A stretch of 64,000 nt of DNA from a bacterium (GTDB lineage: Bacteria > Krumholzibacteriota > Krumholzibacteriia > LZORAL124-64-63), in assembly GCA_003353795.1 (NCBI GenBank), contig PIVY01000002.1:12552-76551 (forward strand), read 5' to 3'. The position numbers and the translations under genes are program-made. Shown here piece by piece: positions 22,422-44,180 of the stretch. Each line of letters begins with the position of its first letter. Positions within the stretch are counted from its first letter, which is position 1. The notes beneath the pieces are model-generated. The model was not told where the DNA came from, made no database searches, and was given only the letters and a program-made list of their open reading frames with translations.

Positions 22422-24290
22422 TCAGCGCGCCAGCAACAGTTTGCCCACAGCTGTCTCGTGGGGCGTGGTGATCCGACAGAAGTACACGCCCGACGCCACG
22501 GCGGAACCCCGCTGGTCAGTGCCGTCCCAGCGCCAGCTGCATCGGCCGGCCGCAATCGGGCCTCGAACCAGTTCACGCACCAGCATGCCTCGGGCGTCAT
22601 GGATTCGTACCTGCACCGTCGCGGCGCGGTAAAGGTCGTATTCGATGACGGTGCTGGGATTGAAGGGATTCGGGTGGACTCTCACGCCAGGCGCCACCAG
22701 CGGTGTCGAACCAACCGCCGTGGCGTATCCCTCATTGACCAGAGAAGTATTCGCGATGCCACGAACTTCAATGTTCACGCTGCCGATCTCCATGGGCGCG
22801 GCGAAGTCCAGGTAGAACAGGGTGCCGGGCTGATCGACCACTGCGTCCTCGCCGATGAGGGCGTAGGTGACGTCGAATGGGAACACGTCATCCAGGCCGT
22901 GGAAACCGACGCCGGCCAGTTGCTGGGCCAGAGGACCTTCGCGGCAATCCACGTCGCCCAGCGGTACGGGTCCCGTGAGGTGAAGGCCGATGAATCCCGG
23001 ACCCGGATCGATGACCTCGCAGAGCACCTCTGTGTCGCTGAACTGGGTGAGACGGACATCGGCGACCAGCGGACCGTCTATCGCCGGCCGCGGTTCGTAG
23101 GCGTAGATAGCGCCGAATCCGGTCGTGGCCAGCATCAGATCCTCGAAGTCGATGCGCCCGTCGGGAATCGGGAAGCCGTCGACGTAGCCGGAGCTGTTCG
23201 GGGCAATGTCGGCGATGGGCTCGAAGAGCGGGTCTCCGTCGCCGGTCGCGAACAGGTTGACGAAACGGCCGAGGTCGAACCAGTCCACGGCGCCGTCCTC
23301 GGCCGCGACGTCTCCGATGAGGTAATTGGTTCCGGCGTTCTCCGCGATCATCGCCGACGTGTACTGCTCGCCTGCCAGTTCGGTGAACAGCACGTAATGG
23401 TACCGACCACGCGTGACCAGGACGTCCTCGTAGTAGACGACGTGCGCCGGCACGGTATTGACCAGTTCCCACAGCGGCGAATCTACGGCGTCCTGGCGCG
23501 AGCTCGGATTGACGGGAACGACGGCATCGGGATGGCGCTCGTAGAGAGGGTACGCCGACGCGCCGTCCGGTGTGGCCACGACGGCGCGGTAGATCTCCGT
23601 GGCCACGATCTCGACCCCGACGGGATTGACCCAGTCGAGCACGATCCGACCGTGACGGGGAGAGACGGCGAGCCGGGGAATGGACGTGTCGGTCACCGCG
23701 ACGAAGTCGTAGGCGACGGATGCCTCAGCCGCCGAGCCGCCCACGAAGCAGGCCATGGCCAGACCGCCGGTCGTGTACGGCGGAGCCCAGGAATCGAACG
23801 TGAGGGCAAGCTCGCCGTCAATGGCCGCGGTGAACGATTGGCCTTGCGCTTGGACCTCGATGTCGAACCATTGCAGGTTGAACGCCGGTGGCACGTCCGC
23901 GTTGGCAAGCAGAGTCGAGTTACCGCCGGCGACCCAGTAGAGCCTGATGTCGTCGAAGGGCGTCGTGCGATAATTGAGGTGGTAGTGGTCGCCCGTCTCC
24001 TGCATCAGGAAATTCATGATATGGTTGGCGCCGACGTCAGACCGCATGCGATAGGAGACGACGAAATCTACGTCGAGGACGTCGAGATCGGTGATCGCCT
24101 GTGACAGGGTTCCGGAGCCTTGAATCGAGCAACGCGCGGCTCCGGCGCTGACCGACCAGCCGGTGTCGCGATAGAAGAACGGACCGAAAGTGCCGTCCTC
24201 GAAATCGACCATGCCGATCCAGCCTGCCGTCGATGGTCCCGCGGCCGCAAAGAGGCTCACCACGAAAAGGGCACCAATAGACATACGCAT
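22422..24290 (-). CDS. Large secreted protein with a C-terminal Por_Secre_tail/FlgD-Ig-like sorting domain.
   Basis: An ATG at 24290 follows GGGAGGAGG. The signal peptide is 'MRMSIGALFVVSLFAAAGPSTA'. The C-terminus is 'HPNPFNPSTVIEY...IHDARGMLV...SGVYFCRI...KLLLAR'. Confidence 0.65.
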   Translation of the reverse strand: MRMSIGALFVVSLFAAAGPSTAGWIGMVDFEDGTFGPFFYRDTGWSVSAGAARCSIQGSGTLSQAITDLDVLDVDFVVSYRMRSDVGANHIMNFLMQETGDHYHLNYRTTPFDDIRLYWVAGGNSTLLANADVPPAFNLQWFDIEVQAQGQSFTAAIDGELALTFDSWAPPYTTGGLAMACFVGGSAAEASVAYDFVAVTDTSIPRLAVSPRHGRIVLDWVNPVGVEIVATEIYRAVVATPDGASAYPLYERHPDAVVPVNPSSRQDAVDSPLWELVNTVPAHVVYYEDVLVTRGRYHYVLFTELAGEQYTSAMIAENAGTNYLIGDVAAEDGAVDWFDLGRFVNLFATGDGDPLFEPIADIAPNSSGYVDGFPIPDGRIDFEDLMLATTGFGAIYAYEPRPAIDGPLVADVRLTQFSDTEVLCEVIDPGPGFIGLHLTGPVPLGDVDCREGPLAQQLAGVGFHGLDDVFPFDVTYALIGEDAVVDQPGTLFYLDFAAPMEIGSVNIEVRGIANTSLVNEGYATAVGSTPLVAPGVRVHPNPFNPSTVIEYDLYRAATVQVRIHDARGMLVRELVRGPIAAGRCSWRWDGTDQRGSAVASGVYFCRITTPHETAVGKLLLAR

Positions 24291-24488
24291 GACGGACCTC
24301 CTCCCAGAGACATTCGGGCAATGAACACAGCATATCATGATTGGCGGCCCGCTTCAACGGTGTCCGTTGGTGGCTCACTTTCGATTCATGGGCGCGCGTG
24401 TTATCTTCCTGCGGCCCGTAGGGCGATTCTGTGGGCCCGAACTCGAACCCAAACTCGTTCGACCAGAACGAAAAAGGACCAATGACCC

Positions 24489-27302: not shown

Positions 27303-27580
27303 GGTCGGCTCGATCTCCGTTGAAGGTGTCGAATGATGCCCCGGGCGCCGGCGCCGATCCTGACGAACACGCCCTGGCAGGGAATCGCGCGCCACGCTAC
27401 CACAAGACTGCCGTTCTCGGCGAGTATCGTCGGCGCCGACGGCTGCGGCCGTACTTCCAAGATAAAGCTTGCGTACCGGTATTCGAGGAGATAATCGTGC
27501 GGACAAATAGATGGTGGTCGGTCCGTTCGGACCACGATCGGCCGCGCTTCCGGAACGGGCCACGACGAAAGGATCATAGC

Positions 27581-28426
27581 GTGCGTATCAAGCACCTCGC
27601 CCGCCTAGTCGCTCTCTGTTTCTGTTTCCCCCTTCTGGCGTCAGTCGCAACGGGCCAATCGGTCACCGCTTCCGATTTCCGCAGCGCCGGTCGCTTCCTC
27701 GAGTTCAGCTACGGCACGGCTACGCCGAAGTTCAAGGGCATGGATGGTTCGTTCGCCAGCCTGGGTATCCTGGAATTCAAATCGGGCTACAGTCTCCGCG
27801 ACAGCGTCACCGCGAACGTGATCGGCATGGACGACTTCTATTCCTTCGGCAGCTACATGGACGAAGACCTCCGGGCCTTCGGTACGACCGGGGCCGACGA
27901 GGACGTGGCTCGGCTCGGTCGGTTCGGAATCGGCAACCGGATGGGCTACGGCTACGACTGGCAAGGCACCGCTCTCGAGCTGTACAACCAGAACTCCATC
28001 AACTGGACCACCCTGCACGCGGACCACTATCCGGACGCCTCGGACGACGCCCAGGCCATCTTCGACCGCTACGGTACCCAGCTCCGGTTCGGACAGCTCA
28101 TGGAAGCCGGCGCGAAGTTCCACGTGTCGCAGACTGTCGCATTCACCGGTGGTATGGAGGGTGCGGTGATCTTCCCGCGGTACGTGTTCTGGCCCTGGCT
28201 GGGAAGCGTGGCGATCTACTCGATCGCCGAAGGTGCTGTCGAGCTGATCGCCGATCAGATCATGGAGTCCAACCCGACCATTGGTCCCGTCGCCTACTTC
28301 TTGCTCAAGAACGGACTGTCGCTCGCCTACTACTCGCTCCTGCGCGGCGACATGGCCTGGCCCTTCAACTACGAGCAGCCGCTCACCGTGGAGTCATTCA
28401 AGCTGGGGTTGAACCTCACGTTCTAG
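27581..28426 (+). CDS. Hypothetical secreted, aromatic/Gly-rich protein, probably in the outer membrane.
   Basis: A GTG at 27581 follows AAAGGA. The signal peptide is 'RIKHLARLVALCFCFPLLASVATGQ'. The protein ends in ...LNLTF. Confidence 0.5.
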   Translation: MRIKHLARLVALCFCFPLLASVATGQSVTASDFRSAGRFLEFSYGTATPKFKGMDGSFASLGILEFKSGYSLRDSVTANVIGMDDFYSFGSYMDEDLRAFGTTGADEDVARLGRFGIGNRMGYGYDWQGTALELYNQNSINWTTLHADHYPDASDDAQAIFDRYGTQLRFGQLMEAGAKFHVSQTVAFTGGMEGAVIFPRYVFWPWLGSVAIYSIAEGAVELIADQIMESNPTIGPVAYFLLKNGLSLAYYSLLRGDMAWPFNYEQPLTVESFKLGLNLTF

Positions 28427-28478
28427 CGGGATCGTCGACGATCGTTCGGGCCCGGCGCCATGCCGGGCCCGAGCAGAG

Positions 28479-29330
28479 TCACGGTGCGGGGACCGCCAGT
28501 TCGTGGAGGCGCCGCTGCGCCGATTCCAGGTCCGGACATCCCGCGACTCCCAGTGCCCCACTGTCGGTTTTCCGCATGACCACCACTCCCTGATAAGGGA
28601 TCTCGCGCCACGCGACCACGTGGCCGCCGTCTTCCTGCACGTGCCACTGGCGGGAGATGGTGGCGAAGGGGTCGCCGCCGGCCCGCATGGCGAACACCTG
28701 GTACGCCTGTCCCGAGTCCGGATCCTCGTAGTCGGCGTGGAGGCAGTTGCGCAGGTCGGCCAGGCCGAGGTAGTCGCGACCGGTGTAGGCGACCGAGCCC
28801 GGAACACGATCGGCGTTGGGAATCAGGGCGAGTTCGGCGGGCGGGGAGTCCGCTCCTTCCAGGCCCGCGGCCGCGGCGGCGAGGATCTCGCGCAGCAGCG
28901 TTTCGTCGACATCGCCGCCGCCGGCCTCGACCTTCACGTAGAAGCGGTCCTTGTACATGAGGCCCTGGTAAGGCGGCTGCAGGATCGCACCGGCGCCGGG
29001 TTCGTCGAGGATCTCCCGATCGGCGGGACTCTCGCGCTCGAAGATGCCGAAGGCGCTCATGGGGTGGCCCATGTCGTAAACGCTGAGGGTGGCGTACTGG
29101 TCGCCGCGTTCGAGGTCGCGCACCGCCAGTTCCCGGAAGTTGTAGGTGAGATAAAGCTCGGCCGCGCCGTTGATGTACTCCCAGAGGTTGTCGGGACCGT
29201 AGCGATATTCCTGGTCGGGGGCGTCCCAGCCCTCGGGGATGGGCACGATGTTCTCCTCGCCGGTCGTCTGGGCGACGACCGACGAGACGGTGCAGGCGGC
29301 GATCAGGATGGCCGCGAAGATGGCGCGCAT
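28479..29330 (-). CDS. Hypothetical secreted protein; last gene of the Tat/Fe-S redox operon.
   Basis: The signal peptide is 'MRAIFAAILIAACTVSSVVAQ'. A 12-nt spacer separates it from the upstream aldo-keto reductase gene. Confidence 0.5.
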   Translation of the reverse strand: MRAIFAAILIAACTVSSVVAQTTGEENIVPIPEGWDAPDQEYRYGPDNLWEYINGAAELYLTYNFRELAVRDLERGDQYATLSVYDMGHPMSAFGIFERESPADREILDEPGAGAILQPPYQGLMYKDRFYVKVEAGGGDVDETLLREILAAAAAGLEGADSPPAELALIPNADRVPGSVAYTGRDYLGLADLRNCLHADYEDPDSGQAYQVFAMRAGGDPFATISRQWHVQEDGGHVVAWREIPYQGVVVMRKTDSGALGVAGCPDLESAQRRLHELAVPAP

Positions 29331-29342
29331 GTCGATTCCTTC

Positions 29343-30726
29343 CTAGGCCATGGTGAGCAGGCCGTGAGCCTCGAACAGACGGGCGGGCACCGCCACGCCG
29401 CGGGAGCAGGCTCCCACGCAGGGGGCGTCGCAGTCGAGGCAGACACCGGCGTTGCGAGCGCCGAGCTTGGCGTACTTCTGCATGGCGTGCTTCTGCCGCC
29501 CCTGCTTCTGGTAGTAGTAGGCGTAGCGCATGATGGTGCTCACGGGCAACTGCTCCGGGCAGGCGCCGAAACACTCGGTGCAACCGAAGCGGCAGTCGCG
29601 TGCAGCGTAGGCCGCGGCGTACTCCTCGAGCAGGCGGGCGCCGCTGTCGGAGATCTCGGTGCCGGACAGTGGCAGGAACTTGTCGAGCATGTCGAAGTTG
29701 GGCATGGACGGCACGATGGTGTGAGCGTCGGGATTGCGCAGCACCCACTGGAGGCTGGCGTAGTCCAGCTCGTCCTGGGTCTTGATGCCGTGCTTCTCCA
29801 TGAACGGCTTGGCCGCCGCCACGCCCTTCTCGAATTCCGGCTTCTGCCGCTCCATGTAGGTGCGGATCCGCTCGATGGCCTCCTCGCGGGTGGCGCCGGT
29901 GCCCATGACGTAGTCGATCCAGCCCTGGACCTGCTCGCTGGGGTTGTCGGGATCGAGGACCGGCATCTCAAGCAGCCCCGTCACCGACTTCATGATGGTG
30001 GTGCCGATGTCCTTGTCCTTGCAGACCTTCAGGATGTTCTCGCCCTCTTCCTGGTTCGTGAAGCCGTAGCTCAGCAGCATGACGTCGAAGCGACCGTCCT
30101 CGGCGGCCAGGCCGAGCACCTTCTCCATGCTGTCGGGCTCGTCGCCGCGGGGGCCGTGGCTGGAGATGCCGGCGTGCTTGAGCCTGCCGTCGGCCTTGAG
30201 CTTGGCCACCGCGATATGGAAGGGCTCGTGGGTGATCAGCTTCACGTCGGCGATACCGTGCATGTAGAGCGCGTCGGCGTAGGGGGTCTGCAGGCGCTCG
30301 AGGCTCTTCATGTAGCGGTCGATGATCTCCTGCTCGTCGGGGTACTCGTCGATGCCCATCTTGGTGACGATGAAGATCTTCTCGCGGTCCATGTACTGCA
30401 TGGCCTGGCCGATCTTGGTCTCGGAATCGCCATTTCCGTAGCTCTCGGCGGTGTCGAAGCAGTTGATGCCGTGGTCGTAGGCGTAGCGGATCACGTTGGG
30501 GTCGGCGATGGAACCGCAGCCCATACCCAGGTCGGAAACCTGGAACTCGGTGCGACCGAGGCGGCGGTGGCGTGTGACCTTGGCGACGGCGGGCTCCGCG
30601 GCGGCGACGGGGTCGGACTGCGCTTCGGGCTTGCTGCCGCAGCCCGCGGCGGCCAGGCCGAGAGCGGCGGTGCCTCCCAGCTTGAAGAACGCGCGGCGGT
30701 CGAGCTTGCTCTGTTCGGTCTTCATG
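29343..30726 (-). CDS. Tat-exported aldo/keto reductase fused to a C-terminal Cys-rich Fe-S (ferredoxin-like) domain.
   Basis: An ATG at 30726 follows GAGG. 'MKTEQSKLDRRAFFKLGGTAALGLAAAGC' is a Tat signal. 'YDHGINCFDTAESYGNGDSE' is an aldo-keto-reductase motif. The C-terminus is 'CRFGCTECFGACP...CLDCDAPCVGACSRG'. Confidence 0.75.
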
Positions 30727-30742
30727 ATCTCGCCCTCTCTTT

Positions 30743-32389
30743 TCAATAACCTAGATCTTGGCCATAGGGATCGTTGCCGCCCGGCAGGACGGGCTGGTTG
30801 TCGGGATGCCGATCCTCGCCGGCACTGGTGACGCGGATCGCGGCCAGGTCCTGGAACGGACACTTGGTCTCGCAGATGCCGCAGCCGGTGCACAGGTCGG
30901 GATCGACCACGGGAAATTTCAGGGTGCGCGAGGAACCGTCACGCAGTTCGACGTCGCGCAGTTCGAAGGTGATGGCCTTGGTGGGGATGGGACAGTGCTC
31001 CTCGCAGACGATGCACTCGCGGTCGTAGGCGAAGGGCAGGCAGCGGGTGGTGTCGATCACCGCCAGGCCGATGTTGGCCTTCTTCTTCACGTCCAGAGTC
31101 AGCGGCTCGATGGCCTGCGTGGGGCAGACCTGTCCGCAGGCGTGACACTCGAACTCGCAATAGCCGATGGCCGGCACCAGCACCGGCGACCAGAGGCCCT
31201 CGAGGCCCGCCTGCTCCCAGGCCGGTTGCAGCGCCGCCGTGGGGCAGACCTGCATGCAGAGGCCGCACTGCACGCAGCGTTGCAGGAATTCGCGCTCGGC
31301 ACGCGAGCCGGGCGGGCGGATGAGCGCCGGATTGAAGGTCTTGCCGTGGGCCTGCGGCGTCATGCGCATGAGCGCGAGGCCGCCGGCGCCGGCGACCAGC
31401 GAGGTGATCAGGCGGCGTTTGCCCACATCGAGCGTGCCGCTGGAGGTCTTCGCCGTGGGCAGATGCCAGGTGAAGTCGAGGCTGCCGTTCTTGCACGCGT
31501 CCACGCAGTTCCAGCAGCCGAAGCACTCGGTGCCGAGCCACTGGTCGGGCTTCTCGGGCTGGGCAGCCGCGGGGCAGCTGAGGGTGCACTTGCCACAGCT
31601 GTTGCAGCTCTCGCTGTCGCTGGTCAGGCGCAGGAGTGGTCGGATGGAGAAGGCGCCAAGCAGACCGCCCAACGGGCAGAGATAGCGGCACCAGAAACGG
31701 TTGCGCACCAGGTTCAGGGCCAGCGCGGTCATGAAGATCAGGAAGATGAAGCCGGCGCCGGAGAAGACGCGCAGTTCGGTGGCCGTGACCTGGTTGCGCC
31801 ACCAGGTGTAGACCGGTTCGGTGAGGTCGCGCAGGTGCAGCGCGCCCAGGTGCGGATCGCCCATGTAGATCGCGTTGGCGACGGCGCCCACGGCCACGTC
31901 CAGGGCGGGGACCACGGTGAGGGAGAGGCTGCGGTAGAGGAGGGAGAAGGGGTCGAGGACCCCGATCCAGTTGGCGCCGCAGACCGCGAGCAGGAGAAGC
32001 GCGGCGAGGATGTAGTACTTGCCGCGTTGCCAGCGGCTGTAGCCCTCGACGCGCGGCGTGATGCGGCGGAACTGGTCGCGAAGGGAACCCACCATGTTGT
32101 GGAGCGTGCCGAGGGGGCAGAACCAGCCGCAGAAGACCCGGCCGAACACGAGGGTGACGGCGATAGTCGCCAGGCCCAGCAGCGACGCGCCGGCCAGGGT
32201 GTGGGTCGACAGCCAGGTGGCAATCATCACCAGCGGGTCGAGATCGAAGAACACGCCGACCGGTGCGTCCGGCGCCAGGCCGGTGGTGGGGCGGTTGGCG
32301 GCGAGCAGCACGACGAACAGCAGAAGCGCGAGGCCTTGGACCGTGCGGCGCGTCCAGATGAGGCGGCGGGCTCGCGCGTGGGCGCTCAC
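30743..32389 (-). CDS. Membrane-bound NapH/MauN/RdxA-like polyferredoxin with an integral membrane domain and four 4Fe-4S motifs.
   Basis: A GTG start at 32389 overlaps the upstream DUF362 stop as GTGA. The N-terminus has 'RRLIWTRRTVQ'. Membrane CX3CP motifs are 'FCGWFCPLG' and 'FWCRYLCPLG'. The C-terminus has 'CVQCGLCMQVCP', 'CHACGQVCP', 'CIVCEEHCP' and 'CTGCGICETKCP'. The Arg-rich N-terminus in the table ORF overlaps DUF362 and is rejected. Confidence 0.75.
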   Translation of the reverse strand: MSAHARARRLIWTRRTVQGLALLLFVVLLAANRPTTGLAPDAPVGVFFDLDPLVMIATWLSTHTLAGASLLGLATIAVTLVFGRVFCGWFCPLGTLHNMVGSLRDQFRRITPRVEGYSRWQRGKYYILAALLLLAVCGANWIGVLDPFSLLYRSLSLTVVPALDVAVGAVANAIYMGDPHLGALHLRDLTEPVYTWWRNQVTATELRVFSGAGFIFLIFMTALALNLVRNRFWCRYLCPLGGLLGAFSIRPLLRLTSDSESCNSCGKCTLSCPAAAQPEKPDQWLGTECFGCWNCVDACKNGSLDFTWHLPTAKTSSGTLDVGKRRLITSLVAGAGGLALMRMTPQAHGKTFNPALIRPPGSRAEREFLQRCVQCGLCMQVCPTAALQPAWEQAGLEGLWSPVLVPAIGYCEFECHACGQVCPTQAIEPLTLDVKKKANIGLAVIDTTRCLPFAYDRECIVCEEHCPIPTKAITFELRDVELRDGSSRTLKFPVVDPDLCTGCGICETKCPFQDLAAIRVTSAGEDRHPDNQPVLPGGNDPYGQDLGY

Positions 32390-33327
32390 GAGAGGACGCG
32401 ATCCACGGGTGCCAGCGAGGCGTAGTCGATGGTGCCCAGGCCGGCGGCGACCGCGGCGTTCAGGGTGCTGATCGCCGTGGGGTCGTGCCCGAGGAGCGTG
32501 GACCCGAAGGCGTCGAGGGCCACGATGTCGGTGCCGGCGGCCACGATGCCGTGCACGGTGACGTCGCCCGGGTCGCCGCCCTGGGGACCGTGGGCGTCGA
32601 GTACGCGCACCGCGTCGATCACCGTGAGGCGGGGACGCATGAAGCGGGTGATGTCCACCAGACAAGGATCCATGTGCTGGTGCCAAGCGGTGCGCTGGCC
32701 GCCGATGGTGCCCATGTAGTTCTTCATGGCCAGCGACGCGTTAGTCAGGCCGTGGTGCTTGACCACCGGCACGTTGATCACCAGGTCGGCCTCTGCGATC
32801 TCGGTGTAGACGGGCCACGTCTCGAGCCGGTCGCCGCCCAGCTCCATGTCGCGGAAGCGGCGCTCGTCGAGGTAGACCACCTGGCCTCCGCCCGCCTTGG
32901 TGGCTGCCGCGATGCCGCTGGTGCGGTAGGCCTGCTTGGCGGGATGGCAGGGGTGATCGCCCACCTTGACGGTCTTGGCGCCGGCCTCGACACAGAGGCG
33001 TACCAGGGTGCCGACCACGTCCGGGTTGGTGTTGGCGGCCAGCTCGGGGCGGCGATTCCAGCCGATGTTGGGCTTGATCCAGACCACGTCGCCCTTGCTG
33101 ACGAATCGGGTCATGCCGCCGATGGACGACATGGCGGCCTCGGTGAGGCGAGTGGCGGCCGCGGTGAGATCGGCGTCGGCGAGGGCGGCCTGGTCCCAGC
33201 GGGCGATGGCCATCTGGGCGGGGTCGTCGGCGGCTCGAGCGAGACGGATCAGCGGATCGGAAAGGGCGATGGCGCCGGTGGCCAGGGCCGCGTTCCGCAG
33301 GAACTCGCGACGGTCGCAGCGGGGCAT
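32386..33327 (-). CDS. DUF362 domain protein with a Tat signal (ferredoxin-associated family).
   Basis: The N-terminus 'MPRCDRREFLRNAALATGAIALS' has a twin-arginine motif. The DUF362 core 'DVVWIKPNIGWN...VINVPVVKHHGLT' follows. It is the first gene of the operon. Confidence 0.7.
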   Translation of the reverse strand: MPRCDRREFLRNAALATGAIALSDPLIRLARAADDPAQMAIARWDQAALADADLTAAATRLTEAAMSSIGGMTRFVSKGDVVWIKPNIGWNRRPELAANTNPDVVGTLVRLCVEAGAKTVKVGDHPCHPAKQAYRTSGIAAATKAGGGQVVYLDERRFRDMELGGDRLETWPVYTEIAEADLVINVPVVKHHGLTNASLAMKNYMGTIGGQRTAWHQHMDPCLVDITRFMRPRLTVIDAVRVLDAHGPQGGDPGDVTVHGIVAAGTDIVALDAFGSTLLGHDPTAISTLNAAVAAGLGTIDYASLAPVDRVLS

Positions 33328-33723
33328 GATGCCTCCTCACAGGTGGTCGGGCGAGCCGGGCAGCTCGCCGACAGGTGCTGGCGAGCATACGGCGTTGATT
33401 CTAGCGCGGTTGCAGGGGATGTGTCCAGGGGGCGACAGGATCGGTCGTCGATCTACGAGGAATCCGCCAAGAATCCTAAACCTTGAACTCACGCTTGGTG
33501 AAGTTCTCGCTAATTGACCGATGATTATCGGCGTTCTATTGTGCCCTGGCTGGCGAATCTCCCGAGTATCGCAACGTGGGTCGGCAACGGCGAGATCTTA
33601 TTCAAGTTGTTTATTTGATACCAGTTATCGTTTCAGTGTCTCGACAAAGGAGGCCTCTCTGTCGCCTCTTCGATCAACTCGCCCGTTCCATTTTCCGGAT
33701 CGATCAATGAGGAGGATTCCGAC

Positions 33724-36700
33724 ATGAATCATCGCCCAACCCGACTGATCATCGTGCTGCTCACCTTGTTTGCCATCGTCCTCTCCGCGTCGTCGGCGCT
33801 GGCGGCGCTGGAGTGGGAGAAACGGGCCGCCATCGATCACGGCCTCGTGTGGCTGGCAACCAACCAGTCCATCAACGGCGACCTGGGATACTGGAGCTAC
33901 TCCAACGACGGCACCCTCGCCTGCACCGCCGCTGCGGCGCTGGCATTCATCGAGGAGGACTTTCTGCCCGGCGAGGACGTTGTCATCGACGACATCAACT
34001 ACGGCGACGTGGTGGGCTTCGCGCTCAACTACGTCTTCAATCACGCCGTCGCGGACTCGCGATTCGGCGTGGAGTACGCGGTCTACGAGCGATATGCCGA
34101 GGACTACGACAACGACGGCATCTACGACGACGGTAACGACCAGGCCATCTACTTCGATCCGGGGAATCCCAACCGGCGGGTCTACACCACCGGCATCTGC
34201 GTGCCCATGGTCTTCGCTCTGGGCGAACGTCTGGGAATCAATACCGTCATCGGTCGCGGCTCGGCGGTCGTCAGCGGCATGACCTACGCCGAGGCCATGC
34301 AGGATCTCATCGACTGGTTCTGCTTCGCCCAGGTCGAGCCGAATCGCGGCAACTACCGCGGAGGCTGGCGCTACGATGCGAACTACCCCGACTCGGACAA
34401 TTCCACCGCGCAGTGGGGATCCCTTCCGTTGCTCTACGGCGATTCGTGGGGGCTGGGAGCGCCCGACTACGTGTTCGCCGAACTGGAACTCTGGGTGAAC
34501 TACATCCAGAACGCCAACGGCGGCTCCGGGTATTCCAATCCCGGTAACTACGTCAACGTGGCCAAGACGGGCGGACTCCTGCTCGAGTTGGCGGCCATCG
34601 GCGCACCGGTGAGCGACGCACGGGTGCAGGCGGCGATCGGCTTCATCAACGGCCGCTGGAACACCGGGCCGTCTGGCACCTGGTACGGCAACCTGAATCA
34701 TCCCTATGCCATGTGGGCGGTCTTCAAGGGGCTCGAGGTCTATGACCTCATGGATACCATCACTCTGGATGATCTCGAGATCCTCTTCGGTTTCGGAATG
34801 TCCGCTGCACCTGGCGGCTTCCCCATCGGCACCGTCGACGACTTCGTCATATCCGAGAGTGGCGATTGGTACTCGCACTACTGCGACTACCTCGTGGGGA
34901 TCCAGAACGGAGATGGGGGCTGGAACGGCTATCTGCACTGGGTCGGCGCCATGGCGACCGGCTGGTACATCAACATCCTCGATGGCATCCGCGTGCCGGG
35001 AATCGGCAATCCGGCCATCAGGCTGGTCTCCGAGATTCCCGATGCTTGCGCCAATCCTGGCGACCCGGTGCTCCACACCGCCGCATTCTGGTACGGCACG
35101 CCGGGCTTCCCCGATCCCGACACGCTGCCGGCCGAGAACGTCGAGGTGCTGCTCACCCTCAATCAGCACATGACGTTCGTCGCAGCCAGCGATGGCGGCA
35201 CCTACGACGTGGGCGCCCATACGGTCACCTGGTCCATCGGTGAACTGGCCGACGGAGAGGTGGATACGGTCACCGTGGACGCGGTCGTCGCCGGCACGGC
35301 GCCTGCCGACGCCGAGCTGATCACCGAAGTCGACGTGAGTGCGACCAACGTACAGGAGGAGGACTGGGGCCACGACGAGACGGAGGTTCTCACCTGCGTG
35401 TCCACCTGCGTCTGGAACGTCGCTACCGACGTGGTCGAGCGCGGCGCCACCCACGGCGTGGCCTGGGGCGATTACGACAATGATCAGGACCCCGATCTCC
35501 TGGTCACCGGCAGCGGCTTGAACCACCTGTACGAGAACGTGGACGGCGTGCTCGTGATGGTCGAGGGCTGGTGCGAAGACGAGGAGCCGTCCTACGGAGC
35601 CGCCTGGGCCGACTACGACAACGACGGCGATCTCGATGTCTACGTCGTGAACTCCCTGGTGGCCAACGCGCTCTACAACAACGACGCCGGCGTGTTCACC
35701 CGGGTCGCCGCCGGCGATGCCGAGGACGCCGGAGACGGCTACAATGCCGCCTGGGCGGACTTCGACGGCGACGGCGATCTCGATCTCTACATCTGCAACC
35801 GAGACGGCACCAACCGGTTGCTCGAGAACGACGGCGGCATGTTCACCTCGGTGGGCGGCGTGACCGAGTACACGGGCATCACCCGCGGCTGTGCATTCGC
35901 CGACTACGACAACGACGACGATCCGGACCTCTACATCAGCGTCTACGGCGACAACATGCTCTTTCGCAACGACGGCGGCGTGTTCGTCGACGTCTCGGCC
36001 CCGCCGATGAACGACGGCGGCGAGGGCAAGGGCGTGGCCTGGGCCGACTACGACAACGACGGCGATCTGGATCTCTACCTGGTCAACACCCACGGCGCCA
36101 ACAAGCTGTTCCGGAACGACCTCGATGCCGGCTTCGTCGACGTGACCGACGCACTTCTCGGCGACGAGAACAACGGTCGCACGTGCGCCTGGGCCGACTA
36201 CGACAACGACGGCTGGATGGACCTCTTCTTCACCAACATCACCAGCGGTCGGAACATCCTCATCGAGAACGACGAGGGTGTGTTCACGGATGCCAATTGC
36301 GGTGTGCTCGAGGACACGGCGACGCTGGAATCGTGGGGCTGCGCCTTCGCCGACTACGACGGTGACGGCGACCAGGATCTGGCCATGGCGGTGCGCACGC
36401 TCAACGGTCCGAGCAAGGTGTTCCGCAACGATCTGACGTTCGGCGAGCCGGCGAACTGGCTGCAGATCGACCTGCGCGGCGTGGCCAACAATCGCTTCGG
36501 TGTGGGCGCCCGCATCGTGGTCGATACCGGCGAGCAGACCCTGATGCGCGCCGTGAATGCCAACGGCGCCTACCTGGGGCAGCAGCCGCTCACCGCCAGC
36601 TTCGGGCTGGGCGCGGCCACGCACGTGGATCTGACCGTGCACTGGCCCAACGGCGAGGTCCAGACCCTGGCGAATCTGCCGGTGAACCGCCGGCTGGAGA

Positions 36701-37026
36701 TCGTGGAAGCCGCCGGCGCGGTGGGCGTGGACGAGTTGCCGACGTCGCCGCTCCTGACGGTGACCAACTATCCGAATCCGTTCAACCCCAGCACGACCCT
36801 GGAGTTCTCGCTGCCGCGCAGCGCCGAGGTCGAGTTGAAGGTGCTGGATGCGCGCGGTCGGCTGGTCAGGACGTTGCTGGCCGGCGAGACCATGGTTGCC
36901 GGCGTGCATCGCGTGCGGTGGCAGGGCGGCAGCGACTCCGGTCGGGATGTGCCGTCGGGCGTGTACTTCTATCGGTGCGGTGCGGGCGGTGAGGTCGTGA
37001 CCGGAAGGATGGTGCTCTTGAAGTAG
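33724..37026 (+). CDS. Giant secreted CRTAC1-like protein. It has an N-terminal prenyltransferase/terpene-cyclase-like alpha-toroid region, about 10 FG-GAP/VCBS repeats, ASPIC/UnbV domains and a C-terminal Por_Secre_tail/FlgD-Ig-like sorting domain.
   Basis: The signal peptide is 'MNHRPTRLIIVLLTLFAIVLSASSALA'. 'WADYDNDGDLDLY' type repeats occur about 10 times. 'RFGVGARIVVDTGEQTLMRAVNANGAYLGQQ' is an ASPIC/UnbV motif. The C-terminus is 'YPNPFNPSTTLEF...VLDARGRLV...SGVYFYRC...RMVLLK'. Confidence 0.75.
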   Translation: MNHRPTRLIIVLLTLFAIVLSASSALAALEWEKRAAIDHGLVWLATNQSINGDLGYWSYSNDGTLACTAAAALAFIEEDFLPGEDVVIDDINYGDVVGFALNYVFNHAVADSRFGVEYAVYERYAEDYDNDGIYDDGNDQAIYFDPGNPNRRVYTTGICVPMVFALGERLGINTVIGRGSAVVSGMTYAEAMQDLIDWFCFAQVEPNRGNYRGGWRYDANYPDSDNSTAQWGSLPLLYGDSWGLGAPDYVFAELELWVNYIQNANGGSGYSNPGNYVNVAKTGGLLLELAAIGAPVSDARVQAAIGFINGRWNTGPSGTWYGNLNHPYAMWAVFKGLEVYDLMDTITLDDLEILFGFGMSAAPGGFPIGTVDDFVISESGDWYSHYCDYLVGIQNGDGGWNGYLHWVGAMATGWYINILDGIRVPGIGNPAIRLVSEIPDACANPGDPVLHTAAFWYGTPGFPDPDTLPAENVEVLLTLNQHMTFVAASDGGTYDVGAHTVTWSIGELADGEVDTVTVDAVVAGTAPADAELITEVDVSATNVQEEDWGHDETEVLTCVSTCVWNVATDVVERGATHGVAWGDYDNDQDPDLLVTGSGLNHLYENVDGVLVMVEGWCEDEEPSYGAAWADYDNDGDLDVYVVNSLVANALYNNDAGVFTRVAAGDAEDAGDGYNAAWADFDGDGDLDLYICNRDGTNRLLENDGGMFTSVGGVTEYTGITRGCAFADYDNDDDPDLYISVYGDNMLFRNDGGVFVDVSAPPMNDGGEGKGVAWADYDNDGDLDLYLVNTHGANKLFRNDLDAGFVDVTDALLGDENNGRTCAWADYDNDGWMDLFFTNITSGRNILIENDEGVFTDANCGVLEDTATLESWGCAFADYDGDGDQDLAMAVRTLNGPSKVFRNDLTFGEPANWLQIDLRGVANNRFGVGARIVVDTGEQTLMRAVNANGAYLGQQPLTASFGLGAATHVDLTVHWPNGEVQTLANLPVNRRLEIVEAAGAVGVDELPTSPLLTVTNYPNPFNPSTTLEFSLPRSAEVELKVLDARGRLVRTLLAGETMVAGVHRVRWQGGSDSGRDVPSGVYFYRCGAGGEVVTGRMVLLK
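35590..36430 (+). repeat. Intragenic near-identical DNA repeats encoding FG-GAP units, of the form gcctgggccgactacgacaacgacggcgatctcgat.
   Basis: About 27-40-nt near-identical units are visible at 35596, 35744, 36031, 36187 and 36340. Confidence 0.6.
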
Positions 37027-37094: not shown

Positions 37095-39887
37095 TCATCG
37101 GGGGAGATGTCCGACCTCCAGTTCGTAGGTCAACCAGGTGAGGTTCGCCCCGGAATCTGCTGCGATGTGGCGGCGGCGGACCTCGCTGAGCGCGTCCCAC
37201 GCGCCGGTCAGCCCCGCGCCGCGGGTGCGTGCGAGGAACTCGCTCATGAACGCCGCCGCGGCGGCGTCCTCGATGGTCCAGCGGGCGGCGATCACGCCCG
37301 CAGCGCCGGCGTCCGTGAAGGCATCGGCGAGGGACGGTCCGGTCACGGTTCCGATCGCGTGGCCCGAGGCGCTCCGGCAACTGGAGAGCACCACCAGCTC
37401 GCAGCCGGAGAGGTCCCGGCCCAGGATGTCGGCAAAGGTGAGCCGGTCACCGACGGGATCGTGATCGGCCGGGTCGGCGGCGCAGGGCAGGTAGCTGCGG
37501 TAGGGCATCTCCGGGTCATGGGTGGCGTGGCCCGCGAGGTAGATCATGCGGGCCCGGGGCAGGTGCTCGAGGATGGCCTGCTTGCGGGCGGCGGCGTCCA
37601 TCAGCAGCACGGGGTCGGGCAATCGCGCGGCGGCCAGCTCGGCCTCGACCCGGACGTACGGCAGGGAGCGGAGCGATGGGCGCTCGCGCTTCAGGGACGA
37701 CGAAAGCTCCGGCACGCCGACCACGCAGCTCAGGCGGTTGTCGCTTGCCGCGGTGGGCCCGTCGTCCACGAGCCGCAGGTAGGCCGTCTGCCAGCGCGCC
37801 GCGAGGGGCTGATAGTCCGCCGGATCGCCGAGATTGCAGGCCTCGAGCGCCAGCGGATCCACTGCTGCGGTGGTGGCGATGAGCAGGCGGCCGCCCGTGT
37901 CGGCCCGCACCCAGTCCGGCATGAGAACCTCGGTGACCTCGGCGAGCTCTCGCGCCAGCTCGCGGGATACGGGCGCGTGCGGCGTGGCTACCCCCTCGGC
38001 GAGGCGTAGAGGTACCACTGCCAGCAGGGGCGCCACGGCGTTCGCCGGGATCGAGTCGCAGGCGACGCTGCCGTCGATGATCTGCCAGCGGAGCACCTGG
38101 TCGCCGAGCCGGGCATACACCAGCGCCCGGTCGTCGCCGGTTCGCGTCCAGTCGGCGAGCTCGTCGGCCTCGCTGCGGCCAAAGGCCAGCAGGCGCTCCA
38201 CCGTGCCGCCTGCGCCGGTGACGTGGTGGGTGGTCGCGTATCGTCGGAGTTGTCGCCACGCCAGTTCGACGGCGAGGCCGCCGCGCGGATCGTCGGCGAA
38301 GTGGCGGTGGAGCTGCTCACGGAATCCGTCGAGGCGGCTCAGCATGAGGTACACCTCGACCCGCTCGCCCCAGGCCGAGAGCCTGGTCAACAGGTCGGCG
38401 AGAGCCGCGTCCGCGTGCACTGCAGCGAGGCTGGCGTCGCCCTGCAGCTCGGCGATCTGCAGCGCGAGGCGGCTAGTCTCGAAGCTCGGCGGCCCCGCGT
38501 CGACGGACCTGGCCAGGTGAATCGCGGCGCTGTCCGCCCGTCCCGCCGCCACGTGGCCCGACGCGATGATGGTGTGGAGGCGGCGGCCGTGGTCGCCGAG
38601 GCCTTCCCGCCGGACGTAGGCGAGGCCCTCGTAGGCAAGGGCGATGGCGCGGCGGTGCTCCCCCCGCTCGACGAGCCAGGATGACCAGTCGGCCAGGACG
38701 GTGGCGTAGTCGTAGTTCCGCGGCAATGAGGTCGTCAACTCGGCGAGGCACGCGTAGACCGAGTCCGCCGCGGCATGCCGACCCACGTGTGTCAGGTAGC
38801 CAGCCTGGGTGCGGAGGGTGACCGCCAGGTAGCTGGCCTGCCGCGGTTCGGCATTCAGGAGCGTGACCTGCCCGAGCAGCAGTTCGGCCCGCGGCAGTCT
38901 GCGGCCGACCAGGTCCCAGCAGCCGAGGTCAGCGTGGAAGGCGAGCCTGGCCGCCAGGAAGCGGACCTCGATGTATCCGGCGTCGAGCCGGCGCGCCACG
39001 GCCACGGCCTCGTCGTAGTGCTCGGCCGCCAGGCTGAGCTCGCCGCGACCGCGATGGTAGGCGGCCAGGATGGTGTGGATCCGGCCGGCCTGGGCGGGGA
39101 GTCGGGCTGCGAGGGCTAGTTCGAGGGCCTCGTCGGCCAGCAGCATGGCGGTGTCCCGGCGGCCGGCAGCGAGACGGTCGTCGCAGAGCGTTCCGAGCAT
39201 ATGGCTGAGCTGGGGCGTGAGTCCCGCCTCGCGAGCGAGGCGGATTCCGCGGTAGAGGTGCGCCCGCTTGCGGTGGTCCTGGCCGGCGTCGGCGGACAGT
39301 TCGACCATCCGGCTCTCGATATAGGTCTCGGACCAGGGGCAGCCGGCGAGGGAATCGGATAGGGCCTGCATGGCTCGGTACTTCTCGTCGACCGGGGCGT
39401 CGGTGGTCCGGTGGACGCGCATCACCTCATTCTTGAGGCGGGTCACGCGCAGGCCTTCGCTCGTCGGGTGCTCGCGCAGGTAGCGGACCAATGTCTGTGG
39501 ACCCTGCGAGTGACCGCGGTCGGCGACGATGGCGGCCAGGCGTTCGATGGCCGGCATCGTCTGCGCCAGTGACGATTCGTAGGCTGCGAGAGAGGTGTCG
39601 TCGATCGAGTCGATGATCAGGCCGACGTGGTCGATGAGCTGATGCGCATCGAGCGCGTCGCAGACCGCGGCGAGCTCGTCGTCGGTGCCGGAGACCAGGG
39701 CGTCGGCGAGGCGGGGGTCGAGGTTGGGCGCATGGCGGATCAGGATCGCGCCGGGAGCTTCGGCACCGGTGAGGCGCATGAGGACGATCACGGCCACGAC
39801 GACCACGATCGACGCGGCGGCGATCGACCATTTCGAAAGGGAACCGTGCCGGTGGGTGAAGGCCATCATCACGGGGTCACGGTTCAC
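37095..39887 (-). CDS. Membrane-anchored TPR-repeat protein with a C-terminal CHAT (caspase-like) peptidase domain.
   Basis: A GTG start at 39887 overlaps the anti-sigma stop as GTGA. The N-terminal TM segment is 'WSIAAASIVVVVAVIVLMRL'. A long TPR-like helical region follows. The C-terminus has 'YLAGHATHD' and 'VVLSSCRSASG', the CHAT His/Cys dyad. Confidence 0.75.
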   Translation of the reverse strand: MNRDPVMMAFTHRHGSLSKWSIAAASIVVVVAVIVLMRLTGAEAPGAILIRHAPNLDPRLADALVSGTDDELAAVCDALDAHQLIDHVGLIIDSIDDTSLAAYESSLAQTMPAIERLAAIVADRGHSQGPQTLVRYLREHPTSEGLRVTRLKNEVMRVHRTTDAPVDEKYRAMQALSDSLAGCPWSETYIESRMVELSADAGQDHRKRAHLYRGIRLAREAGLTPQLSHMLGTLCDDRLAAGRRDTAMLLADEALELALAARLPAQAGRIHTILAAYHRGRGELSLAAEHYDEAVAVARRLDAGYIEVRFLAARLAFHADLGCWDLVGRRLPRAELLLGQVTLLNAEPRQASYLAVTLRTQAGYLTHVGRHAAADSVYACLAELTTSLPRNYDYATVLADWSSWLVERGEHRRAIALAYEGLAYVRREGLGDHGRRLHTIIASGHVAAGRADSAAIHLARSVDAGPPSFETSRLALQIAELQGDASLAAVHADAALADLLTRLSAWGERVEVYLMLSRLDGFREQLHRHFADDPRGGLAVELAWRQLRRYATTHHVTGAGGTVERLLAFGRSEADELADWTRTGDDRALVYARLGDQVLRWQIIDGSVACDSIPANAVAPLLAVVPLRLAEGVATPHAPVSRELARELAEVTEVLMPDWVRADTGGRLLIATTAAVDPLALEACNLGDPADYQPLAARWQTAYLRLVDDGPTAASDNRLSCVVGVPELSSSLKRERPSLRSLPYVRVEAELAAARLPDPVLLMDAAARKQAILEHLPRARMIYLAGHATHDPEMPYRSYLPCAADPADHDPVGDRLTFADILGRDLSGCELVVLSSCRSASGHAIGTVTGPSLADAFTDAGAAGVIAARWTIEDAAAAAFMSEFLARTRGAGLTGAWDALSEVRRRHIAADSGANLTWLTYELEVGHLPR

Positions 39888-40744
39888 TCATCACCGTGAC
39901 GCGCGAGGATGGCCGCCGCGCGCGCGGCAACGGCCGATGGCGCGTGTCCGGCAAGCTGCTGGAGTGTCGGCAGGGCGTCGTCGGCATGGCCCAGGTCCAG
40001 CTGCACGATGGCCAGGTTCAGCAGCGTGGCTGGCTCCGTGTCGCCCGCCGCGATGGCGTCCTGTAGGAGAGCCTGCGCCCGTTCGAACTCTCCGCCGCGG
40101 TAGGCGACCACGGCGGCTGCCACAAGGACGGTCTCCGCGTCGGGGTAGCGCCGCAGGGCGTCCGTGGCAAAGGTGCGGGCGGTGGAGACCTCGTCCAGGG
40201 CGAGGTAGCCGCCGATCAGCCACATCGCGGCCGAGGGGTCGTTTGCCGAGTCGTGGTAGCGGTCGGCCAGGGCCTGCACGGAGGCCACGAGCGCCGAGTC
40301 TTCGGCGATGCCGCGCAGCGCCGGGCCGGCCTCGGGTTCGCCGACGGCGCCGGGGAAGACCATGGCGCCACCGTGCCGATCGGCCAGGACCCCGGCGATG
40401 GGGCCGACCAGTTCCGGCGCCAGCGGCGGCGGGTCGACGACGGGCGATACGATCAGGAACACCAGCACTGCGGCCATTGGCAGTCCCACGATCGCCGCCC
40501 AGCGCCGACGGGCCACGCGGGGTCTGACGCTGCCGCTCGTGCTGGCCAGAATGGTCGCCACCATCGAGGCCGGCGCGGCGAGCCCCTTCCGGGCGCGGAA
40601 TTCACGGCTCGTCGCCTCCGCCTCGAATACCGCATCCCGGCAATGCCGGCAGGACGCGAGGTGATCGCGTTGCCCTCGGCTCAGGCCGGACTCGCCGTGA
40701 TCGGCCAGCCGCGCCAGGAGTGCCGGGGACAGGTGCACGTTCAC
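39884..40744 (-). CDS. Anti-sigma factor with an N-terminal zinc-finger anti-sigma domain, one TM segment and a C-terminal TPR-like domain.
   Basis: A GTG start at 40744 overlaps the sigma-factor stop as GTGA. 'HLASCRHCRD' is the zinc-finger motif. The TM segment is 'WAAIVGLPMAAVLVFLIVSPVV'. The C-terminus is TPR-like. The Arg/Pro-rich N-terminus in the table ORF is a shadow of the sigma-factor gene. Confidence 0.7.
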   Translation of the reverse strand: MNVHLSPALLARLADHGESGLSRGQRDHLASCRHCRDAVFEAEATSREFRARKGLAAPASMVATILASTSGSVRPRVARRRWAAIVGLPMAAVLVFLIVSPVVDPPPLAPELVGPIAGVLADRHGGAMVFPGAVGEPEAGPALRGIAEDSALVASVQALADRYHDSANDPSAAMWLIGGYLALDEVSTARTFATDALRRYPDAETVLVAAAVVAYRGGEFERAQALLQDAIAAGDTEPATLLNLAIVQLDLGHADDALPTLQQLAGHAPSAVAARAAAILARHGDE

Positions 40745-43590: not shown

Positions 43591-44180
43591 TGTTGCTCAT
43601 GATCGACAACTACGACAGCTTCACCTACAACGTGGTGCAGGCGCTCGGCGAACTGGGCGCCGAGGTGACCGTGCGGCGCAACGACGCCGTCTCGCCGGAC
43701 GAGGCGGCGGCCCTGGCGCCGGCGGGCCTCATCATCTCGCCGGGCCCCGGCACGCCCGCCGACGCCGGCGTCTCCGCCGCGCTCATCGAGCAGTTTGCCG
43801 GACGCGTTCCGGTGCTCGGCATCTGTCTCGGCCACCAGACCATCGTCGAGGTCTTCGGCGGACGGATCCAGCGGGCCGAGCGGGTGATGCACGGCAAGAC
43901 CAGCCCGGTCTACAACGACGGCCGCACCATCTACTCCGGTCTGGGCAATCCGTTCACGGCCACCCGGTACCACTCGCTCATCGCCGTGGAGGGCGACCTG
44001 CCCGAAGCGCTCGAGATCAGCGCCTACACCGCCGAGGGCGAGATCATGGGCGTGCGCCATCGCCAGCTCGCCATCGAGGGCGTGCAGTTCCACCCCGAAT
44101 CGGTGATGACGCCCGAGGGCGCCCAGCTCCTTGGCAACTGGCTGCAGATCTGCACCGCGACGGGAGCGGTGGCGACATGA
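43590..44180 (+). CDS. trpG: Anthranilate synthase component II (glutamine amidotransferase).
   Basis: An ATGA overlap joins it to the trpE stop, and GGAGG lies upstream. 'MLLMIDNYDSFTYN...GICLGHQ...HPES' are the class-I amidotransferase motifs. The long table ORF is an alternate-frame extension. Confidence 0.9.
   Translation: MLLMIDNYDSFTYNVVQALGELGAEVTVRRNDAVSPDEAAALAPAGLIISPGPGTPADAGVSAALIEQFAGRVPVLGICLGHQTIVEVFGGRIQRAERVMHGKTSPVYNDGRTIYSGLGNPFTATRYHSLIAVEGDLPEALEISAYTAEGEIMGVRHRQLAIEGVQFHPESVMTPEGAQLLGNWLQICTATGAVAT

Follow-up and report, generated by a model that had tools for sequence, protein, structure and literature searches.

To our knowledge, the nickel-pincer enzymes identified so far, namely the LarA racemases, NphT and one cyclodeaminase, are all soluble, cytoplasmic and redox-neutral proteins. 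The nickel-pincer nucleotide itself is made by LarE, LarB and LarC. Here we describe an operon of four closely packed open reading frames (ORFs; g1 to g4, minus strand, 28479..33327) in a 64-kb window, the whole stretch of 64,000 nucleotides of Krumholzibacteriota DNA that was analysed, which encodes a DUF362 protein, a membrane polyferredoxin, an aldo/keto reductase (AKR) and a DUF6599 protein. With moderate confidence, we read the operon as encoding nickel-pincer hydride-transfer enzymes that are exported by way of twin-arginine translocation (Tat) and wired to the membrane through iron-sulfur (Fe-S) clusters.

Some AKRs bind a nickel-pincer mononucleotide instead of NAD(P)H, and one of these, NphT, acts on sugars (Semersky et al., Nat Chem, June 2026, PMC13524815). 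The Ni-coordinating His144 of NphT replaces a canonical Asn/Ser and, together with Lys200, the covalent tether of the cofactor, is a marker of nickel-pincer AKRs that is absent from canonical AKRs; the characterised nickel-pincer enzymes are all redox-neutral (PMC13524815). The same paper is silent on Tat signals, Fe-S domains, the periplasm and DUF362 (PMC13524815). One Pfam clan holds both DUF362 and LarA_N (PMC11770544), hydride chemistry other than racemization has been proposed for "single-histidine" homologues of LarA (PMC12611868), and extracellular fusions of DUF362 with CBM9 and dockerin domains exist (PMC5742341). The membrane component also has a described precedent in the Sec/Tat dual-targeted NapH-NapG polyferredoxin (PFD) class, in which transmembrane domains (TMDs) 1-4 are inserted by Sec and a twin-arginine motif before a weakly hydrophobic TMD5 hands a four-cluster domain to Tat (Tooke et al., eLife 2017, PMC5449189). 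Tat dependence was demonstrated experimentally for the MLMS-1 PFD, in which TMD5 comprises residues 338-359, and that study, which also cites the role of NapGH, assigned neither a partner nor a function to the class (PMC5449189).

The exported AKR and DUF362 proteins

The third gene of the operon, g3 (29343..30725, minus strand), encodes a 460-residue, Tat-signal AKR of the NphT type (PF00248, E 1e-27) that ends in an eight-Cys domain. Foldseek placed its AlphaFold2 model (pLDDT, the predicted local distance difference test score, 84.9) in the TIM-barrel AKR fold, with matches to AKR structures at E 1e-15, and the best match of g3 in the PDB is NphT (9yeb_A; E 3e-12 with the single sequence and 6e-21 with a 33-sequence profile). 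H190 of g3 (ISSHGP) aligns with the Ni ligand His144 of NphT (ITGHG), and K246 (GTTIMK) aligns in the profile alignment with the tether Lys200 (GLMTIK); the segment from H190 to K246 lies at 29988..30158 (minus strand). Both residues are invariant in 33 homologues, and the motif pair is found in 118 of 120. D91, Y96, K122 and H156, which are invariant or nearly so, align with the NphT tetrad D47/Y52/K75/H106. An initial annotation of this DNA had assumed an NADPH site in the AKR, an assumption that is not supported in view of the His/Lys signature, the best PDB match to NphT and the presence of larE, larB and larC in the same operon in relatives.

Related loci were gathered in two scans: a DUF362-seeded scan with one genome per species (80 loci from Krumholzibacteriota, Eisenbacteria, Gemmatimonadota, Hydrogenedentota, Planctomycetota and others) and an AKR-seeded scan of metagenomes (another 80 loci). 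Two contigs, one from Gemmatimonadales and a related one of 1.8 Mb, carry these four genes in the same order and, within 27 nucleotides (nt) after them, three more, whose products match Pfam NAD_synthase, AIRC and Ni_insertion and NCBIfam LarE, LarB and LarC, all above the equivalog cutoffs. The order larE-larB-larC after the DUF6599 gene, in one operon, recurs at several loci (L001/L013, L004, L010, L011, L021 and L091-L093), and the relatives that have larB, larC and larE in the same operon are 66-71% identical. Two further loci (L012 and L014) have larC-larB-larE divergent from the DUF362 gene across about 85 nt of intergenic sequence and have neither an AKR nor a LarA gene within about 8 kb, and three Hydrogenedentota loci have larC-larB 1-3 kb beyond the polyferredoxin gene, again without an AKR. 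Altogether, lar genes lie within 10 kb in 9 of the 80 species-level loci and in three independent arrangements, where about 0.5% or less would be expected for a random gene by our own estimate from one lar locus per few-Mb genome.

The N-terminus of g3 carries a twin-arginine signal, DRRAFFKLG, that ends in a lipobox-like AAAGC (30639..30725, minus strand), and the motif is conserved. An RR motif is present in 112 of the 120 AKR homologues and is followed by a lipobox-like motif (e.g., LAGC or LSGC) in 38 of them, and many members of the family may be Tat-exported lipoproteins; one homologue is an NCBI-named Tat-signal protein and another has a match to PF10518. At the other end of the protein, the Cys domain (29406..29594, minus strand) comprises C378/C382/C385/C389 and C429/C432/C436/C440, eight Cys within the last 85 residues, each of which is at least 90% conserved. 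Sub-threshold matches to Fer4_9 (E 1e-3), Fer4_10 and Fer4_7 span both Cys motifs, which upholds the earlier description of a Tat-signal AKR with a ferredoxin-like tail, and several AKR homologues have precomputed Pfam matches to Fer4 families that are faint where their strength is given. The tail is ferredoxin-like and probably holds two [4Fe-4S] clusters.

Variants of the AKR are found among the related loci. Short forms of roughly 355-375 residues, encoded by genes of about 1.1 kb (L016-L018, L099-L101, L107 and L115, and also P0100), have lost the C-terminal Cys domain but retain both the Tat signal and the His/Lys motif, and they still lie between the polyferredoxin and DUF6599 genes. At three loci (L140:6967-11371, L150 and L154), two or three tandem AKR paralogues are located between a divergent DUF362-polyferredoxin pair and the DUF6599 gene, which suggests diversified substrate specificity.

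The first gene, g1 (32386..33327, minus strand), encodes a 313-residue DUF362 protein (PF04015, E 1e-50) with the N-terminus MPRCDRREFLRNAALATGAIAL, and its assignment to this family in the initial annotation is borne out, as is the twin-arginine motif. The twin-arginine signal region spans residues 1-33 (CDRREFLRNAALATGAIAL; 33229..33327, minus strand), in which R6, R7 and F9 are invariant across 31 homologues. In an exhaustive DUF362 profile search, 797 cluster representatives passed E<1e-30 and about 8,900 passed E<1e-3, and in a diverse set of 133 representatives that are pairwise less than 50% identical, 116 have an RRxFL-type N-terminal motif. The conserved twin-arginine motif fits the export of proteins with their cofactors bound. 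The Pfam TAT_signal model matched neither g1 nor g3, and it did match paralogues and homologues.

In a Foldseek search with the DUF362 structure, 17 of 17 matches at E<=1e-3 are LarA-family structures, and structural modelling thus gives g1 a predicted LarA fold. K190, H192, K202, G206 and P248 are conserved in 100% of the 133 diverse representatives and H216 in 98%, so that residues 190-216 (KHH...K202...H216; 32680..32760, minus strand) form a candidate cofactor-binding segment that would be equivalent to LarA His174/Lys184/His200. With a LarA reference sequence verified against 5HUQ, the best local hhalign match places DUF362 residues 173-205 on LarA residues 155-187, a weak match (E 0.15-0.19) that pairs H192 with the catalytic His174 and K202 with the tether Lys184 and rests mainly on the pattern ...EADL(V/L)I...H-x9-K. 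Runs against one, four and 64 LarAs each gave the same local match of 31-33 residues, which was never significant. H216 is 14 residues past K202, and LarA His200 is 16 past Lys184; H216 sits in an AWH motif that is also found at His200 of planctomycete LarAs. Extended and global hhalign alignments around H216 disagree and are unreliable. Both enzymes appear to carry a Lys/His signature for tethering and ligating the nickel-pincer nucleotide.

Searches that might have placed DUF362 more closely had other outcomes. LarA_N (PF09861) and LarA_C (PF21113), both of which true LarAs carry, did not match g1, which matched PF04015 only. Sequence and profile searches of the PDB with DUF362 returned nothing, LarA included, a search with short segments returned only chance Myb matches, and no domain fusions were found in the longer DUF362 representatives. 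The initial annotation had suggested a role for DUF362 in Fe-S maturation. We rejected DUF362 as an Fe-S maturation factor on the grounds that it lacks a Cys cluster motif and has the LarA fold, and its near-obligate adjacency to the polyferredoxin likewise speaks against that role. DUF362 appears from its gene context to behave as the catalytic partner of the polyferredoxin, and we regard it as related to LarA in fold and as a candidate nickel-pincer enzyme.

The polyferredoxin, the DUF6599 protein and the two gene pairs

The second gene, g2 (30743..32389, minus strand), has a GTG start and encodes a NapH-NapG fusion polyferredoxin of 548 residues, as judged from NCBIfam matches, hydropathy and motifs. 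Its NapH-like part (residues 1-310; 31460..32389, minus strand) has four TMDs, the two CX3CP motifs described earlier (FCGWFCPLG with C87/C91 and FWCRYLCPLG with C234/C238), and, after TMD4, two [4Fe-4S] motifs (residues 262-272 and 289-299) whose clusters are predicted to be cytoplasmic. Between these motifs and the following ones lies the stretch GKRRLITSLVAGAGGLALMRMTPQAHGK. An internal twin-arginine motif (R325, R326; GKRRLITSLVAGAGGLAL, residues 323-340) directly precedes LITSLVAGAGGLALM, which falls below the threshold for a transmembrane segment; hydropathy marks this region as a weakly hydrophobic fifth TMD that is followed by R and K (31355..31423, minus strand). The NapG-like part (residues 346-548; 30746..31354, minus strand) contributes four more [4Fe-4S] motifs (residues 372-382, 411-422, 450-466 and 500-510) and is predicted to be periplasmic. 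The protein therefore has six motifs of the CxxCxxCxxxC type, where four had been counted before.

Fer4_5 matches g2 twice, and NCBIfam models match it as NapG (E 2e-32 over residues 321-521) and as NapH (E 1e-25 in the N-terminal part), with scores far below the equivalog cutoffs (112 versus 269 for NapG and 90 versus 234 for NapH). The earlier view of a NapH-like membrane polyferredoxin as the electron wire is supported. The topology given here is modelled on that of NapH as described in PMC5449189, and g2 is a member of the known PFD class. A NapGH, MauMN or nitrate-reductase context was considered and ruled out by the absence of nap and mau genes and by the sub-cutoff scores; nap genes were found neither in the window nor in the 80 related loci.

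The last gene, g4 (28479..29330, minus strand), encodes a secreted protein of 283 residues with a Sec-type signal. It had been described as belonging to no known family and is in fact a member of PF20244, DUF6599 (E 1e-25; 90.7 bits versus a cutoff of 27 bits). Searches with g4/DUF6599 returned no PDB match and no second Pfam family, and a literature search on DUF6599 found no papers. In AKR-less loci (L022, L024, L029, L036 and L060), the DUF6599 gene adjoins a longer (about 400-418 residues) Tat-signal paralogue of DUF362, for example at L036:13457-14710 (minus strand). By eye, the longer paralogue keeps the equivalents of K202 and H216, with H192 replaced. Since it adjoins the Tat-DUF362 paralogue at such loci, DUF6599 may more generally accompany exported enzymes of the AKR/DUF362 kind.

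Across the related loci, the four-gene module consists of two separable conserved gene pairs. In the first pair, the polyferredoxin gene directly follows the DUF362 gene in 72 of the 74 loci with enough downstream sequence; in the second, the DUF6599 gene directly follows the AKR gene in 45 of 52 loci. An AKR gene is present in only 9 of the 80 DUF362-seeded loci and a DUF6599 gene in 17, and among AKR-seeded loci with at least 3 kb of upstream sequence only 8 of 29 have DUF362 or the polyferredoxin. Where the pairs are linked, DUF362 and the polyferredoxin are upstream of and colinear with the AKR in close relatives and divergent from it in distant relatives (L120, L139, L140, L150, L154 and L161). 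Since linkage has arisen in these two arrangements, the pairs presumably work together, although not obligatorily. When all flanking ORFs were clustered, only generic families emerged (histidine kinases, Gfo/Idh/MocA, sulfatases and ABC ATPases), and no further family is conserved around DUF362-polyferredoxin.

The four families co-occur elsewhere, with the same gene order on other contigs, and the recurrence of that order on many unrelated contigs puts the arrangement far beyond chance. The observation of a four-gene operon in the initial annotation is confirmed, and its idea of an exported Fe-S redox module stands; the interpretation as a whole is supported in part.

A proposed periplasmic redox assembly and its alternatives

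How might these proteins act together? We propose that the operon would specify a periplasm-facing, membrane-anchored redox assembly made up of the two gene pairs. The nickel-pincer cofactor and the Fe-S clusters would be inserted in the cytoplasm and the folded holo-proteins exported by Tat, and for the polyferredoxin Sec would insert TMD1-4 and Tat would handle TMD5 together with the four-cluster periplasmic domain. The polyferredoxin would then connect the membrane/quinone side with the periplasm by a chain of Fe-S clusters. DUF362 may dock on its NapG-like domain and so provide a membrane-bound oxidoreductase with its catalytic subunit, and the AKR, helped or anchored by DUF6599, may reach the same wire through its own two-cluster tail. 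In the periplasm, the nickel-pincer cofactor would take hydride from, or give it to, a small carbonyl or alcohol substrate, and the Fe-S tail and the polyferredoxin would couple this hydride chemistry to the quinone pool. Such an assembly would explain how an AKR can function without NADPH in the periplasm, since a covalently bound cofactor would be exported with the folded protein. The analysis shows the gene content, the motifs, the folds, the Tat and Sec/Tat signals, and the conserved pairings with their links to lar genes; from these we infer the cofactor identity, the topology, complex formation, electron transfer, the substrate and the direction of electron flow.

The likeliest substrates would be a sugar, a polyol or a hydroxy-acid. 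Hints of a carbohydrate substrate, none of them strong, come from the sugars on which NphT acts, the DUF362-CBM9-dockerin fusions, and the glycosidase or sulfatase genes that neighbour the module in some relatives. The thermodynamics of aldose or alcohol oxidation favour electron flow from the substrate to quinone. Reductive flow from quinol to the periplasm, the direction suggested in the initial annotation, is possible and is favoured by analogy with NapGH-type proteins, which are known as quinol dehydrogenases. A more ambitious and decidedly tentative proposal is that DUF362-polyferredoxin with a docked Fe-S-tailed AKR constitutes a new class of respiratory enzyme, a periplasmic dehydrogenase or reductase in which the nickel-pincer nucleotide serves as a true redox cofactor. 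In that case, the hydride would be split into single electrons, possibly through the nickel, which would travel along the [4Fe-4S] clusters to or from the quinone pool.

Several observations weigh against wired, exported nickel-pincer enzymes. We know of no nickel-pincer enzyme that exchanges single electrons with Fe-S clusters. The residue mapping of DUF362 on LarA is statistically weak by sequence at the E values given above, the equivalence of H216 and His200 is an insecure one drawn from spacing and the shared AWH motif, and LarA exceeds DUF362 in length by more than 100 residues. DUF362 has no conserved counterpart of LarA His108, the tentatively aligned position 128 being mostly Asn in the diverse set, and for this reason the protein should not be called, or filed as, a racemase; it resembles the "single-histidine" LarA homologues. 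The TIGR01409 score of g1 (16.4 bits) is just under the cutoff of 16.7. Among the 120 AKR homologues, 19 are forms of about 355-375 residues without the Fe-S tail, many AKR loci are without DUF362-polyferredoxin, and each pair also occurs alone, so that the AKR need not exchange electrons with the polyferredoxin. With regard to lar genes, tblastn and hidden Markov model searches found no larA, larB, larC or larE in the 64-kb window, the nearest relatives (L088, 87% identity, and L090) have none directly after the DUF6599 gene, and none were found near the module in 71 of the 80 DUF362-polyferredoxin loci or in any of the 24 distant AKR-DUF6599 loci whose downstream sequence extends for 3.5 kb or more.

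The separate occurrence of the pairs and the tail-less AKR forms would fit an alternative in which DUF362-polyferredoxin and AKR-DUF6599 are independent neighbours that exchange no electrons, with the operon co-regulating users of the same cofactor. We consider this unlikely, because linkage that is colinear in some lineages and divergent in others argues for selection on the linkage, the four genes in the window are translationally tight, and an exported AKR with an eight-Cys tail needs a redox partner when no other is encoded nearby. It is also conceivable that the polyferredoxin belongs to a maintenance system that, like NosGH/NosR or CcoG, keeps an oxygen-sensitive periplasmic cofactor or metal centre reduced and active with quinol-derived or cytoplasmic electrons and does not carry the catalytic flux, while the enzymes themselves are redox-neutral hydride shuttles, as NphT and LarA are. 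NapH-type proteins are quinol dehydrogenases that feed periplasmic partners, and a maintenance role would avoid the routine conversion of hydride to single electrons. It would also agree with the redox neutrality of the characterised nickel-pincer enzymes (PMC13524815). The near-obligate 1:1 coupling of DUF362 with a six-cluster protein nevertheless looks more like that of catalytic and electron-transfer subunits than that of an enzyme and its repair factor, and we judge the maintenance role to be improbable.

A further alternative dispenses with nickel altogether. An ordinary NAD(P)H-type AKR could be exported with a tightly bound nicotinamide cofactor, to which the polyferredoxin would return quinol-derived electrons by way of the Fe-S tail, with DUF362 as an accessory or Fe-S-related protein. 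Such export has a precedent in the glucose-fructose oxidoreductase of Zymomonas mobilis, a periplasmic enzyme that is exported by Tat with tightly bound NADP, there being no free cofactor in the periplasm. PF00248 membership, the intact catalytic tetrad and the lack of lar genes in the window all agree with an NAD(P)H-type AKR, but the invariant His/Lys pair marks nickel-pincer AKRs and is absent from canonical ones, NphT is the best PDB match, larE, larB and larC share the operon in relatives, and DUF362 is a LarA-fold protein without an Fe-S motif. On balance, there is little probability that the AKR is of the ordinary type, and Tat-exported nickel-pincer enzymes wired to the membrane remain the explanation that we prefer.

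Operon surroundings and relation to known systems

In the operon, the GTG start of g2 (32389) overlaps the stop codon of g1 as GTGA, as had been noted, and the spacer of 12 nt between g3 and g4 also holds; the spacer between g2 and g3 is 17 nt, one more than the 16 given earlier. A sigma-70-like promoter candidate (TGGACA-18-TAGAAT; 33398..33427, minus strand) is located about 70 nt upstream of g1 and has 10 of 12 consensus matches; two such sites were found where 0.3 were expected, on consensus match only. Seven nt past the g4 stop lies a GC-rich hairpin with an 11-bp, GC-only stem (28446..28472, minus strand; free energy -32 kcal/mol, z -3.1). The hairpin has no T tract and may mark the operon end as a terminator or RNA-stabilising element in a high-GC organism. 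Antisense ORFs of 500-750 codons are found opposite g2-g4, e.g., 28503..30749 (plus strand), without family matches; they were rejected as genes, being high-GC artefacts that fail the criterion of GC by codon position (high GC3, low GC2) by which genes were called. A convergent gene (27320..28426, plus strand) and a divergent one (33724..37026, plus strand) border the operon, and the flanking functions are unrelated to it: on one side a gene of unknown function is followed by arginine deiminase, and the other side has an FG-GAP/ASPIC protein.

The window contains other features that we record here. Large secreted proteins ending in FlgD Ig-like domains are encoded at 22425..24338 (minus strand) and 33724..37023 (plus strand), the latter also with six FG-GAP repeats and an ASPIC/UnbV domain, and C-terminal FlgD Ig-like tags recur in related Krumholzibacteriota, Eisenbacteria and Gemmatimonadota loci, a hint at the lineage of the window. 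The product of 8330..9355 (minus strand) begins with another twin-arginine-type sequence, MDRRDFLYLVSCGVLGLAV, and its one family match, to a GHL10 glycosyl-hydrolase-like domain, is weak. A co-directional run at 44177..48647 (plus strand), with a TrpB-like FGGQYVPE motif, resembles a tryptophan-biosynthesis operon, and 49696..51021 appears to be an AroA-like gene, both as judged by sequence. A 930-residue CHAT-domain protein (37098..39887, minus strand) adjoins a sigma-70 family factor (40744..41640, minus strand), and the two resemble a regulatory pair of the protease/anti-sigma type that is unrelated to the redox module.

A literature search combining nickel-pincer with Tat or periplasmic terms found no papers, and the four-gene combination is not described in the literature searched. 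If the proposed assembly is correct, it would be the first nickel-pincer system outside the cytoplasm and linked to electron transport, and it would explain how an AKR functions where NAD(P)H is absent. It would also provide the first candidate function and cofactor for DUF362, a family of thousands, and the first partner for the Sec/Tat dual-targeted NapH-NapG polyferredoxins, and it would raise the question of how a hydride cofactor talks to one-electron Fe-S carriers. If the system were in addition a respiratory enzyme class, the large Tat-DUF362 family would become a third, previously unrecognised group of nickel-pincer enzymes. Sediments and soils commonly harbour the lineages concerned (Krumholzibacteriota, Eisenbacteria, Gemmatimonadota, Hydrogenedentota and Planctomycetota), which are for the most part uncultured, and a respiration-linked periplasmic oxidoreductase of sugars or hydroxy-acids would matter for their carbon metabolism and for the nickel that they require.

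With respect to known systems, the Zymomonas mobilis enzyme shares with the proposed assembly the Tat export of a sugar oxidoreductase with its cofactor bound, and differs from it in having a Gfo/Idh/MocA fold and NADP, no Fe-S clusters and no membrane partner. Compared with LarA (5HUQ, 7S91, 9EIA and 9Q3J), DUF362 is about 12% identical, has no Pfam DUF2088/LarA_C match, is exported by Tat and always has an Fe-S membrane protein as its partner. The polyferredoxin resembles the MLMS-1 PFD in its four NapH-like TMDs, two CX3CP motifs and cytoplasmic [4Fe-4S] motifs, in the RR before a weakly hydrophobic TMD5 with positive charges after it, and in its four NapG-like periplasmic motifs; unlike NapGH and the known PFD, it has no nap genes nearby and sub-cutoff scores, and it has a conserved partner, DUF362, that is undescribed for the class. 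The AKR shares with NphT the TIM-barrel AKR fold, the tetrad, the Ni-ligand His and the tether Lys, and lar genes are adjacent in relatives. Unlike NphT, which is a soluble, 291-residue, redox-neutral disproportionating enzyme, g3 has a twin-arginine signal that may be of the lipoprotein type, about 80 residues inserted past the tether Lys and an eight-Cys domain, and its gene is accompanied by those for a membrane polyferredoxin, DUF362 and DUF6599. It is best classified as a variant with a new architecture within the NphT-type nickel-pincer AKRs.

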